Shown one piece after another: positions 15,586-50,266 of a DNA stretch of 64,000 nucleotides (position 1 is its first letter; each line of letters begins with the position of its first letter). The notes beneath the pieces are model-generated. The model worked only from the letters and a program-made list of their open reading frames with translations, did not search any database and was not told the DNA's origin. The stretch is from Isurus oxyrinchus (lineage: Eukaryota). Where the stretch lies: positions 33,108,001 to 33,172,000 of the forward strand of contig JANJGN010000026.1 of assembly GCA_026770705.1 (NCBI GenBank), in the 5' to 3' direction. The position numbers were made by a program, and so were the translations under genes.

Positions 15586-16601
15586 ATTACGATGCATTGC
15601 AATAATTTAACCAAACAGCCGCTTCTAACACTCTCTTGACTTCAAGTAAACAGCATAGTTTGTCACCCCTCATTACTAAGACATCAACGTATGGTTTCAG
15701 ACTTGTTCTGGAAATACACAATAAGTAATTGCGATGCTGGTGATTAGGTTGGTTCTGTAGAGCGTTTTGCTGCATTTCAGCAAAGAAAAGGTTTGTGTGC
15801 GCACATCGGTGGAGCCTAACATAACAGGGATTTTCTCTGCCACCTTGAAGATAATTGGGAGTGCAGGTTCTCTCCAGGAAGCAGAAAATCTGTCAAGTTA
15901 TTCTGGATTGTTGTTTTCCATGAAAGTTTTATCTTTATGCTGGAAAAGCTTCAGGTTGTCAGCCTTCTCTGTCACATTCTTCTGCCCTCCAGAAAGTTTG
16001 CAATGTTATGACAATAATGTGATTATGGGAAATTTATCTCTTACTTTGCCCTTGTGACAGGATGTTAAGGAAACTGGCCGACAGCCACAAAAGTTTAAAC
16101 AAATCAAAGAACAAAGTCAGAAATTAAGGTAGAGAATCCTAGTCAGTCATCTATCTGCATTACAGCCAACACAGCTTCTGATGTTCTGATCTAATCAACT
16201 ATTTTATCTGCATCCCATCTGAAAGGTGCATCTCCGGAACTGCAGTAATCCCTCAGTTCTGCACTGCAGAATCAGCCTGATTGACTGGGACTTGAAGCCA
16301 GAACCGCCTGATTTAGAGGCAACAGCGCCACCAAGTGAATCACCATTGTCGCAGGGCAAGTAGAATATAAGTTTGGGTAACTTGGATTATTCATGGTTAA
16401 TTTTTTACTATTCAGGAAACAGCGGTGTTTAAACAGGAAATGGAGGAGGAGTCAGGTTTCTGAAGGGGAAGATGGTGAACCCCAGCCTGACACTGGGTTC
16501 CAGCCTGTTTAAAAAGTGAACGGAACAGCTTCAAATTAACAATTAGGAAGCAGTGTCGGGGAGTCTTTACAAGGCTGGAGAAACTTCTACCGAAAAAGCA
16601 A

Positions 16602-16650
16602 ATGATGGTGCTCTTCCTGTACCTCTGTTTGTTTCTAGTTAGCTTTACTT
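16602..16650 (+). CDS. Leader exon of IgW-type VH
   Basis: MMVLFLYLCLFLVSFT + 1 nt, donor GTGAGT at 16651 (phase 1). Confidence 0.9.
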
Positions 16651-16770
16651 GTGAGTGCTGATCATTTATTGATCGTAGAGTCATTAATATTTTAAATATT
16701 CTGGTTTACTTTGTTGCATTTTAAAATGTCTCTTTTCACCGAGATTTGCTCCTTTATAATTTGCTCGTAG

Positions 16771-17070
16771 GTGTCCGGGCCAGCATTGTGCTAACCCAAC
16801 CGGATTCCATCTCCAAAAACATTGGTGACACTCTCCAACTGTCTTGTGCGGTGAGTGGGTACGATATCAACCAACATCATATGCACTGGATTAGAGAGGT
16901 CGCCGGGGGAGGGTTGGAATCCATACTCGCTTATAGGAAAGGGTACAACACCTCTTACACGCCTGGAGTTCAAAGTCGAATCACTTTTTCAACTGAATCT
17001 TCCACAACCTATGTTGAGTTGAATAATTTGAAAACCGAGGACACGGTCATCTATTACTGTGCGAAGCAGT
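16771..17070 (+). CDS. IgW-type heavy-chain V exon, open reading frame
   Basis: Acceptor TAG at 16768-16770; IVLTQPDS...LSCAVSGYDINQHHMHWIRE...YRKGYNTSY...RITFSTESSTTY...EDTVIYYCAK; resembles shark IgW VH from recall, not from a search. Confidence 0.9.
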
Positions 17071-17109
17071 CACGGTGAGAGAAACCAAGGCTGGACCCAG
17101 GAAAAAACA
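17071..17109 (+). promoter_or_regulatory. 23-RSS of VH
   Basis: CACGGTG, 23-nt spacer, GAAAAAACA (or 22-nt spacer, GGAAAAAAC). Confidence 0.85.
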
Positions 17110-17442
17110 GAACGAGGGGGAATCTAAACGCTCCAGGCAGAACACCTCGTTCAGAAACAATGTTCGTAATACAGTCTGACTCTGAACCTCGAGTTACCCC
17201 TTAACAAATGAATTTCAGCAAAACAATTGTTTGCTTTCTCATGTGTATTATGTATAGCAAAAATGTTTGGAGACCCAGGGGCTAACGTTTCAACAATATG
17301 CTATTGAAGGATTTTAGAAGGATTGGTGATACATTCCTATCAGTTGGAATGAATCTATCCTGAACACTTCTCATCGTTGACAGTAAAGCAAACGCTCGTG
17401 AAATGGAGTCTGAAAGTCAGGATTTGATCAGAAAGGGAATGC

Positions 17443-17517
17443 AGTATTTGTGCGGGCGTGTGTTACTGTGATACTATGGGGTGGGGCATCACATTACTAA
17501 CTGTCAATACAAAAAAC
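17443..17517 (+). other. D segment (17471-17489) flanked by 12-RSS on both sides
   Basis: AGTATTTGT-12-TACTGTG | ATACTATGGGGTGGGGCAT | CACATTA-12-ACAAAAAAC; all three frames open (ILWGGA, YYGVGH, TMGWG). Confidence 0.9.
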
Positions 17518-17845
17518 CCGACAGAACTTATAGGCTCAGTCTGGATCACTGACTGCGAGTATGAGTTCGCTTTACATGTGGTGAAGCAGTGTTGATATTG
17601 TAATCCAGAACTGAAACTCTCGCCGGGTTTAAGAGAGAGAGAGAGAGAACTGCTAGATAATTATTCAGGAATCAGTTGGTGATTGGAAGAAGCATTCAAT
17701 TTGGGCAATCAAATGAGGAAAGACTGATGTATAAACATGAAAATTAATGAAATTGTACCTTTGTAATGCTTTAGAAATCTATTGTTAGTTGTGCGATGTT
17801 ACTTTCTAAAAGAATGGCCTCTTTCCTCAATTTTATGCAGGACCC

Positions 17846-17938
17846 ATTTATTGTGTGGCCCATTGCAGGGAATGTAACACAGTGGTACTGATAGCCTTGA
17901 CTACTGGGGACAAGGTACCAAAGTTACAGTAACGGCAG
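17846..17938 (+). other. IgH-type J segment (17885-17938) with 23-RSS
   Basis: ATTTATTGT-23-CACAGTG then TDSLDYWGQGTKVTVTA, donor GTAAG at 17939 (phase 1). Confidence 0.95.
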
Positions 17939-19384
17939 GTAAGAAACATGCACTATCTTAATAATTAGGTTATATTCCTGTCTTTATCTTAAATTATGTT
18001 TTTTTTAAATTAATTACTTTGGCCATCCATTATGATTAGTAGGCTCTTTAAGTTTGAATGCAATGTTACTTGTGATTGTGCTCAAGGTGCTGTTAGAATA
18101 AAGCGACTGTTCCAGAGTAGGTGCCGGTCTGGGGTTGAACCTCTCACTAAACTGTTGATGTTATACGGACAGAATCTGACAACAGTAAACAAATGAGTTC
18201 TGTGACAGTCTATGTCTCTGGCCCTTTTCATGATATATTGATATTCTTTGAGATGATGTGATACCGTAGTATTGTGACAGAGTTGAACATTCGCGAATCT
18301 TCGCTGTGAAACACAGAACTATTTCAAATAGACCATTGCTAAGTCCGTCATTTGAAATACACTCCGAGAGCAGATCTGTTTTATGTCATGTTATTATGTT
18401 TTACAATGTGGATAATTTACCGCGAGCATCTAGTGAGAAAAGAATATTAGAATCACAGATCATTTCAATGTGATTTTATTGAAGAAAGAAAAGCATTTGC
18501 CAGTTGTGCGTAACTTTTGGAACGATACACGATATATTCATAAAAAAGCAAAATACTGTGGATGCTGGAAATCTGAACTAAAAACAGAAAATGCAGGAAC
18601 AACTCCACGTTTGGCAGCATCTATGGACAATGAAACAAAGTTAACGTTTCGAGATCGTATGGCTCTTCTTCAGAGTTCTGACTCGAAACATTAACACTGT
18701 TTCTCACTCAATTTGTTAATATTGATTAAGTTTATATTGGAAGCCCTAAATTGAACAGAGTGATGGAGTGTAGTGTGATAGCCTCTAAAACACAAAAGTT
18801 ATCAGACACAAACAGTTGCAAATTTCACATTTGTTCATCTTATTAAAATACAGCAAACATTTACAAATTTCGGAGGTGATTTAGAGAACGATTTAAATTC
18901 GTTTTTTCCTAATATGTGAAATACGCCCTGAGATAGACGGAGTTTATGCTATATCATTTTGTTCAAAAACATGTAATGTTTATAAGGGTGCAAGCAGATA
19001 GTAAGACTGCTCATTTTAAATCAATGAAGTTGAATTTGCTTCAAGTAAAATAACATTAACCAAATGTATTCATATATTGAGTGGACACTAAATTTTTAAT
19101 ATTGATAAAGTATCCTGTTAACCTAACTTGAACGGTAAAATCTCGCAAATTACCAGGCAGGAGCAGGATTGAAATTGATATTAACTAATACCTTTATAAT
19201 ACAGGATACATGAACGAATGGATATTATCTTGCACGAATATTATCTGACAATAATTCGAACTTTTTATCGCATCAAACATAAACAGCCTTCTACAATTTC
19301 ATTGTAAACTAGCCAGGATTACCATGAGTGCAAATTCTGAAGGGTTGCAGAGAATATTTAATGATATGACAGAGCCCTGGAATA

Positions 19385-40794: not shown

Positions 40795-41017
40795 GTACTT
40801 TGTACAAGTTTCCATGCATTGTGTATCTCCATGTGTCTGCAATCCCACAATGTTCAGGATTTTGTACAGCGCCCTCCGTGCTCTGTATCACTGCGTCTGT
40901 AATCCCACCATGTTCAGGATTTTGCACAACTCTCTCCGTGCTCTGTATCACTGTGTGTCTGTAATCCCACCATGTTCAGGTTTTTGTACGGCTCTCTCCG
41001 TGTTCTGCATCACTGTG
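40795..41017 (-). repeat. Tandem array of 23-RSS units (60-62 bp)
   Basis: RSS1 CACAGTG-23-ACAAAAACC (41017-40979); RSS2 CACAGTG-23-GCAAAATCC (40955-40917); RSS3 CGCAGTG-23-ACAAAATCC (40895-40857); degenerate fourth unit. Confidence 0.9.
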
Positions 41018-41323
41018 CTGTGGGCCGACTCAGTGCACAGTAATACACAGCGGAGTCGCTCAGTTGTAGTTTGAAGATATTTAACCGGCTGATTTTCTCG
41101 GCAGAATCGATAGAAGCAGAAATTCTCTCCCCGGCAGCATTTTCTTTATTCTCCTCTCCTGAAGTGTGTCTCTGAAGCAGATATTCTGGAGCCTGTCCTG
41201 GGGACTGACGGTACCAGTGTACTGTGTACTGACAGATACCTGAATATTCACAGCTTAAAGTAACGGTGTCACCAGCAGCAGAGGTTTGTAAAGGCGGATT
41301 CTGGAATATCAGGAGACTGGAAC
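41018..41323 (-). CDS. Supporting TCR delta V of NAR-TCR type (leaderless, CDR1 Cys), intact
   Basis: Acceptor CTTCAG, phase 1; GSSLLIFQNPPLQTSAAGDTVTLSCEYSGICQYTVHWYRQSPGQAPEYLL...LQLSDSAVYYCALSRP; consensus 23-RSS; no leader exon visible upstream. Confidence 0.9.
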
Positions 41324-45169: not shown

Positions 45170-45514
45170 CAGCTGTGACAGTCACCTCTGTCCCAGAACC
45201 GTCTGCATAACCATCTTTCCAAATGGAACCACATCCATATTTATACTGAGCTTTACAGTAATAGGTGGCTATGTCTTCAACTCTCACATCCCGAATTTCC
45301 AGAGAAAAAATATTTTCTGCTTTATTCATCGACACAACAAATCTACCCCCACTGGAGATCCGCTCCCGCTCAGTCCCAGTCTGGGTTTGTCTGAAGAAAT
45401 GTCTGTCCTATAAACGATGAGAATTACCATGGAAAATGCAGGTGATGGTGAGAGACTGACACTCCTTCCTGGTCACCGCTGCCGGGGTCTGTACCACTGA
45501 CTGATTGAAAGAGC
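45170..45514 (-). pseudogene. Germline-joined NAR-TCR V-D-J exon
   Basis: 345-nt phase 1/1 exon: SFNQSVVQTPAAVTRKECQSLTITCIFHGNSHRL*DRHFFRQTQTGTERERISSGGRFVVSMNKAENIFSLEIRDVRVEDIATYYCKAQYKYGCGSIWKDGYADGSGTEVTVTA; no RSS; GTAAGT donor; TAG at 45408-45410; most of leader and TATA deleted. Confidence 0.92.
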
Positions 45515-49414: not shown

Positions 49415-49506
49415 CGGCTGTGACAGTCACCACTGTCCCGGATCCATCCGCATAATCAGTAAACCACCACAGTGACACCGCTCTCAGTCTCCCCGGTACA
49501 ACAACC
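49415..49506 (-). other. NAR-TCR J segment (49415-49467) with 23-RSS
   Basis: WFTDYADGSGTVVTVTA, GTAAGT donor; heptamer 49468-49474, 23-nt spacer, ACAACAACC 49498-49506. Confidence 0.92.
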
Positions 49507-49824
49507 ACCGACACCTCAACCTGCCGGGAAATCATCATCACCAGACAGTAGAAACTGCACAAATATTCAGTGGATTTAAATAAATAAACAATATTCAATG
49601 TTTCAACGTCTCTGTCGGTTCAAACTGTTCTTTGTGAGGCCCTGAGATCTGAGTAAATGGTCCCGGAAACGAGATGTTCGCTTCATATAAGCAGACAAAA
49701 TTATTAAAGTAAGAGAACTGAATGGTGGAAATTACAATGAAATGTAACCATATCACAGCGATAATAACATCAGCCCAACAATTCACTATCCGGACCCGCA
49801 GAATTTATATTGTGACCGGACAGA

Positions 49825-50074
49825 GGTATTTGCTCAGGTCTCCCCCACTGTGACTTCCCCATATTCCCATCTTGTCGTAGTGGTACTGAGCTTTACAGTA
49901 ATAGGTGGCGGTGTCTTCAACTCTCGTCCCGGTCTGGGTTTGTCTGAAGAAAGACCCGCCCGTCAAAGGACGAGCGTAAAAACCACCATAGAAAACGCAG
50001 GTGATGAATAGGGACTGACACTCCTTCCTGGTCACCGCTGCCGGGGTCTGTACCACTGACTGACTGAAAGATAC
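49825..50074 (-). pseudogene. NAR-TCR V with long CDR3 extension and 12-RSS (probable germline V-D join)
   Basis: SVVQTPAAVTRKECQSLFITC...FFRQTQTGT/RVEDTATYYCKAQYHYDKMGIWGS then CACAGTG-12-GCAAATACC; 87-nt internal deletion; one extra nt after the acceptor relative to the paralog. Confidence 0.88.
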
Positions 50075-50193: not shown

Positions 50194-50266
50194 GAGGTAA
50201 ACAGACACACAGGGTGAAAACAAGGAGAATTCCCATCGCTCTGCTGCCTGGAGCTGAGGGTTTATA
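50194..50266 (-). pseudogene. Leader exon and TATA box of the upstream NAR-TCR V
   Basis: TATAAA 50266-50261, ATG 50236, MGILLVFTLCVCLP; expected donor reads ATGAGT instead of GTGAGT. Confidence 0.8.

Follow-up and report, generated by a model that had tools for sequence, protein, structure and literature searches.

Cartilaginous fish reportedly possess a doubly rearranging TCR-delta, the NAR-TCR, whose description is ascribed to Criscitiello in 2006. The accessible text of PMC1845163 lists among its features a cysteine in the a-b loop, the absence of tryptophan at the WYRK position and a leaderless V-delta with a cysteine in CDR1, and the receptor is presented in the excerpted text of PMC5931798 as a chain with two somatically rearranged V domains. 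Rearrangement carried in the germline is known from the shark immunoglobulins, for which partial (VD-J) and full joins are both described in the available parts of PMC4279169, PMC5192425 and PMC6795676; the corresponding portion of PMC2193156 attributes such joins to germ-cell RAG acting where TdT activity is low, and records joins of VD alone.

Within the window, by which we mean the whole 64-kb stretch of DNA analysed, lies a half-joined cassette that shares with NAR-TCR, as portrayed in the available text of PMC1845163, an IgNAR-like (VNAR-like) V with a leader of its own (here with a dead donor), the a-b loop cysteine (KECQS in the V frame), the lack of tryptophan at the WYRK position (FFRQ) and a leaderless V-delta with a CDR1 cysteine downstream. 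The best solved-structure matches of the nearest intact relative of its V are VNARs (E 5.7e-20). By these sequence features the cassette belongs to the NAR-TCR type, double somatic rearrangement and expression with C-delta being putative for such cassettes. NAR-TCR is described, in the portions of the literature accessible to us, with somatic V(D)J recombination in both domains, whereas here 66 of the 146 cassettes collected are pre-joined partly or wholly, and the joined exons are stacked. With the germline-joined IgH clusters and NS4 light chains of sharks, in the available parts of PMC2193156, PMC4279169, PMC5192425 and PMC6795676, the locus has in common a VD join with a free J, full joins near split genes, and sparse junctional addition, the joins being ascribed there to germ-cell RAG. 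The likeness to the shark VD-J immunoglobulin type extends to the fused V and D ends, the missing inner RSSs and the split J with its RSS. The window cassette resembles a shark immunoglobulin cluster in the way it would work, yet it is not part of one with C exons of its own; downstream of it come a joined NAR exon and a TCR V-delta. The germline rearranged TCR genes of catfish (PMC6170632, in its accessible text) also present rearranged TCR V(D)J in the germline with the leader intron retained; they are proposed to be transposed lymphocyte products, whereas the shark joins lie in place within cassettes. A literature search found no paper on V-D-fused NAR-TCR or on three-V chains, and supplements beyond the retrieved texts may bear on both. 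The elements of the unit in the window are:

50194..50236, minus strand: leader exon of the half-joined NAR-TCR cassette, with intact ATG and splice donor AT instead of GT (50193-50192)
49873..50074, minus strand: NAR-TCR V exon up to the germline V end, with the a-b loop Cys codon present and Cys2 at 49897-49895
49870..49872, minus strand: three bases separating the V end from the D, where the paralog has two
49853..49869, minus strand: retained full-length D, identical at 16/17 nt to the D of three unjoined cassettes
49825..49852, minus strand: intact 12-spacer RSS, the 3' signal of the D itself, heptamer from 49852
49507..49824, minus strand: D-J spacer of ordinary type, without a further D
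49468..49506, plus strand as listed: intact 23-spacer RSS of J
49415..49467, minus strand: unjoined NAR-TCR J, donor intact
45170..45514, minus strand: NAR V(D)J exon of clade J1, joined throughout in the germline, with a stop at 45410-45408 and an extra CDR3 Cys at 45233-45231
41018..41323, minus strand: supporting TCR-delta V, open, with a Cys in CDR1
40979..41017, minus strand: 23-spacer RSS of the supporting V-delta

The half-joined cassette and its V-D junction

The half-joined cassette, on the minus strand, is a pseudogene: its leader donor is lost, one extra base behind the acceptor of the V exon shifts the frame, and in the assembly 133 nt of the V are missing at 49926/49925, a deletion that may be genuine or an assembly error, so that a protein is impossible. 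The deletion was measured against a near-identical copy, and short repeats stand at both of its ends. The sister copies L002, L003 and L004 bear a poly-G insert in V, and the deletion of the window copy spans that spot.

The original prediction had the V running 14 codons past the second cysteine into a 12-RSS, with longer RSS spacers at the other V segments, and both statements hold. Ordinary V ends carry a 22-RSS (matched in 77 of the 80 unjoined cassettes), and do not, as had been considered, already end in a long CDR3 with a 12-RSS. The absence of a separate D before the 23-RSS J was also borne out, in that an RSS scan of 49468-49852 gave no signal and hence no free D; the 356 nt that separate the 12-RSS from the 23-RSS give an 87% match to a D-J spacer of the ordinary kind, and for the V-D spacer no match was found anywhere in the 64-kb window. 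Finally, the suggested ancestral germline V-D join is supported because a near-identical paralog splits cleanly into the whole germline V end (31/31 nt), 2 nt and the whole germline D (17/17 nt). In the window junction 3 nt lie between V and D, with one substitution on the V side and one on the D side. Both inner RSSs and a spacer of ~390 nt have been lost at the joint, and the 3' signal of D and the signal of J have been kept. The joint is common to four diverged places, which speaks for its inheritance; the four copies that make up the family are pseudogenes without exception, with flanks that have diverged (98-100%) and with a shared frameshift.

We consider it very likely that the cassette represents a clean V-D fusion in inherited DNA, probably made by RAG in a germ cell, with the J still free and the copy itself dead. 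We infer RAG as the enzyme from the RAG-cut form of a joint that has no clear P nucleotides: at most one palindromic base was found beside the D, and the 2-3 inserted bases may belong to a slightly longer ancestral D rather than being hairpin products. In such a scheme RAG would have cut at both inner signals in a germ cell, fusing V to D and leaving J free, and a single VD-to-J cut in a T cell would complete the exon, with one diverse junction rather than two. The joint was read from assembly sequence.

Chance removal of the V-D spacer by an ordinary non-RAG deletion in a decaying pseudogene would be in keeping with the state of the window family, which is dead with other deletions, and end repeats are borne by both the 133-nt deletion and three V-deleted relics described below. 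The V-D joint, however, has no repeat in common between its sides, and both of its ends lie within 0-3 nt of RSS edges. Among random deletions of >100 nt that spare Cys2 and the D 3' heptamer, the exact RSS-bounded spacer is removed in 414 of 55,611 (0.7%), and 9 of 55,611 (0.02%) fall <=2 nt from both coding ends; an event with a chance of 0.02-0.7% would have had to recur in several families, and 19 of the 41 fused copies are otherwise intact. We accordingly regard such a deletion as improbable. A somatic rearrangement from lymphocyte DNA, caught in the assembly, is hardly credible given that the junction is repeated at four places with diverged flanks and a common frameshift, and that other junction families reach 14 copies. 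The original prediction had itself named an alternative, a natively D-less V(12)-(23)J lineage of NAR-TCR. Two of the fused families (E and F, see below) are almost without a D match, and in a midpoint-rooted tree they branch deeply, apart from the unjoined cassettes, as such a lineage might; the window cassette, on the other hand, has a whole germline D and the 87% match to a D-J spacer, and nests among D-bearing cassettes, which makes a D-less ancestry very improbable and leads us to reject it for this cassette.

Pre-joined cassettes across the assembly

NAR-type V segments were gathered by searching the assembly with DNA sequences and with patterns. The resulting counts are minimum values, two of the pattern searches having contributed 100 of 142 and 100 of 143 matches, and small contigs may represent alternate haplotypes. 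The census comprises at least 146 cassettes: 80 unjoined, 41 with V fused to D, and 25 joined in full; the large contig alone holds 71 (37 unjoined, 20 V-D and 14 V-D-J). Three unjoined rows were left unparsed in the integrity counts. The ordinary unjoined layout is V-22RSS / 12-D-12 / 23-J, with the D matched in 62 of the 80 cassettes. Distances from V to J, available for the 133 of 146 cassettes with a J found, fall into three bands of 60-63, 433-457 and 803-873 nt, with none intermediate. Joins of D to J only are absent from the cassettes collected (at least 146), inasmuch as, of the 26 unjoined rows without a D or J match, 20 are colinear with a normal cassette and the other 6 are truncated. 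A profile search of representatives and near-length searches yielded nothing further on joins.

The V-D-fused cassettes form seven junction families, with 4 copies in A, 9 in B, 4 in C, 6 in D, 14 in E, 3 in F and 1 in G. A single origin of all of them is rejected (AU test, p 8e-5), and V-D joins arose several times. The D is retained near-whole in A, C and D and in part in B and G; in E and F the D-like match comes to only 3-4 nt, and the joint in these two families (17 of the 41 copies) cannot therefore be dissected. Leader and V are intact in 19 of the 41 copies, all 19 with their J signals in place, and these intact-looking copies predict T cells with a one-junction repertoire, the window cassette itself being only a dead example. 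Several V-D events of differing age, one old full join and no D-J-only join make up a dated series, with which the action of RAG in the germ line, and the reason why V-D precedes, could be tested.

Family E, the largest, has 11 intact copies among its 14 (e.g. L123, L129-L132, L135, L146-L148). Its fused coding end closes with an in-frame stop, which trimming must remove, and its V and J types are also found in the Carcharodon model P0007.

The fully joined neighbour

The joined exon at 45170..45514 sits 4.6 kb downstream of the half-joined cassette. Its leader start is deleted and its leader donor lost; the acceptor and donor of the exon are intact. The original prediction linked the two by descent, with duplication of the V-D cassette followed by joining of VD to J in the copy that became the neighbour. 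The pair is indeed adjacent, on the same strand and alike in CDR3 length, and an AU test on leader and V alone (75 rows) does not reject kinship of the window family with the joined clade (p 0.089). Against this order stand several other observations. Trees were confined to the large contig and used the 65 of its 71 rows in which a J had been found (64 in one tree, after removal of a long branch), with the junctions left out and poly-G runs shortened. In them the 14 joined copies of that contig constitute one deep clade (support 100/100), and the window cassette nests among unjoined cassettes. Its V exon is 80-85% identical to that of the joined neighbour as against 90-93% to unjoined V segments, and its J with 3' flank 65% as against 92% to the best unjoined cassette. 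Grouping of the window family with the joined clade is rejected by the AU test (p 3e-5 for J plus flank and 2e-56 for the concatenated data), the tests with both joined subclades giving p 0.014 and 0.0006. The junction sequences of the two are unrelated. Moreover, two joined CDR3 types recur in the Carcharodon models P0003, P0008 and P0011, and one of them in the Cetorhinus model P0010; since joined types recur across the three genera, the full join would predate the split of Isurus, Carcharodon and Cetorhinus, an age that comes from gene models rather than genomes. We thus consider derivation of the neighbour from the window cassette extremely unlikely.

The window cassette merely occupies the head slot beside a far older joined clade, and it adjoins the joined exon because joined exons normally sit between a leader-bearing head cassette and the supporting V-delta. 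The joined clade may nevertheless have come about stepwise by way of some other and earlier V-D stage, for instance the deeply placed E/F branch. The spacing Y-x-Y-x4-I-W, to which the original prediction had drawn attention in both CDR3s, is present, but as evidence of kinship it amounts to coincidence, because Y-x-Y occurs in many germline V ends. The joined family usually has V-W rather than I-W, and the paralog of the window cassette reads its D in a different frame.

Joined exons in the unit and their putative use

A NAR cassette lies <=10 kb upstream on the same strand of 24 of the 25 joined exons, as compared with 11 of 121 other cassettes, and no further NAR V was found within 10 kb upstream of the head in the 7 of 7 heads checked. 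Ten of twelve mapped stretches consist of a head, one to three joined exons and a V-delta, with none between; another is a relic-only stack, and the last an inverted orphan. Fisher p-values for these unit counts were set aside because the copies share ancestry and are not independent. The heads are drawn from three different branches of the tree, indicating that the head slot has been refilled, and every head checked, namely 10 unjoined ones and one of family F, is intact. In the window, no leader-like exon was found between the joined exon and the V-delta at 41018..41323. The inverted orphan, L040 (G000:C26 25,218,394), is the sole joined exon without a head, and it is dead.

A dead own leader accompanies 16 of the 19 open joined exons, versus 9 of 80 open exons of other cassettes (10 of 11 versus 0 of 35 on the large contig), and the dead leaders of the joined copies display at least three different lesions. 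Beneath an intact head 19 of 20 joined exons are open, and none of the 5 remaining ones is; these five go back to two events, with the window unit among them. A cysteine in the a-b loop and another at a single CDR3 position are kept by all 25 joined copies, and for the latter possible germline sources were seen in 2 of 77 V ends and 12 of 62 Ds. In the joined subgroup with a common leader stop, dN/dS is 0.46 (0.27-0.76), or 0.49 (p 0.003) when each variant is counted once, and there are 0 indels in 342 nt as opposed to 14 in 770 nt of flank; this subgroup has been under purifying selection after the shared death of its leader. The corresponding dN/dS is 0.89 (0.52-1.85) in subclade J2 and 0.84 in intact unjoined V segments. 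Dead joined exons number 6 of 25. Three joined relics outside the census of 146, L175, L177 and L179 (G000:C26 near 29,983,400; 30,009,800; 30,032,400), have lost acceptor and V by one repeat-bounded deletion, and retain the dead leader, CDR3 and J.

These sequence features may point to TCR-delta chains built with between three and five V domains, composed of a NAR V, one to three germline-joined NAR domains and a V-delta, a proposal to which we give an even chance. The head NAR V would rearrange, and the joined exon or exons would be spliced in as invariant middle domains above the V-delta. The CDR3 Cys of a joined domain would bond with the Cys in the a-b loop of its neighbour above, and the a-b loop Cys of the joined domain would in turn serve the domain below; the result would be a disulfide-linked stalk, made by germline RAG, that would extend the antigen-binding tip. 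It is quite conceivable, if a little short of an even chance, that the joined exon instead lies outermost in the chain, taking its leader from the cassette upstream, whose V would be skipped, to give an invariant two-V receptor, or that it is a skipped relic. Borrowing accounts equally well for the dead own leaders, the need for an intact head and the purifying selection, and RefSeq models combine a leader with a joined V and a V-delta; yet it would leave the CDR3 Cys, seen in 25 of 25 copies, without a partner. The dead exons, the three further copies that lost their V and the J2 ratio are as expected of relics, whereas the dN/dS of 0.46 and the zero indels in the dead-leader subgroup are at odds with a relic. 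Gene conversion could also keep the frameworks. One Carcharodon model spans 8.8 kb, which is the head-to-V-delta span of the unit here, and fits stacking or borrowing. For P0003, the stacked Carcharodon model, folding from the sequence alone reached a pLDDT of 38, too low for use, and a complex prediction for a J2 domain with a J1 domain scored 0.17 against a mark of 0.34.

Were the joined exons to be spliced in as middle domains, the shark receptor would exceed in its number of V domains any that we found described, and would be convergent with marsupial TCR-mu. The V-mu-j of the latter, as presented in the accessible text of PMC7615758, is likewise an invariant germline-joined V exon beneath a rearranging V (24 of 25 here). 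However, it is the second of two V domains, adjoins C and has a proposed origin by retrotransposition, in that same text, whereas the shark exon retains its leader intron and precedes a rearranging V-delta in what would be a chain of three or more V domains. The comparison is one of analogy, and splicing as a structural domain is putative. A further parallel is the Carcharodon gene LOC121270133, to which Table S1 of PMC12227049 gives the label 'NARTCR V(gj)V(gi)V' and which by description and organism is the model P0003, where two joined domains of J1 type rest on a supporting V-delta; the label is a single line, and heads, dead leaders, the CDR3 Cys and partial V-D joins go unmentioned in the available part of that source.

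In the Heterodontus model P0004, two identical NAR V-J repeats stand on one V-delta, and may reflect a stacked unit or a gene-model artefact. Behind the V-delta of the window, at 40820-41017 on the minus strand, the RSS is present as ~3 tandem repeats with a spacing of 62 nt, the first two being good 23-RSSs. Elsewhere in the window, at 16600-17940 on the plus strand, an IgH-like set of L-V, D and J lies amid the TCR segments, which we take to be possibly a TAILV-like or IgH mini-cassette. Its V is open and has a 22/23-RSS, the D has 12/12 signals, and the J has a 23-RSS.
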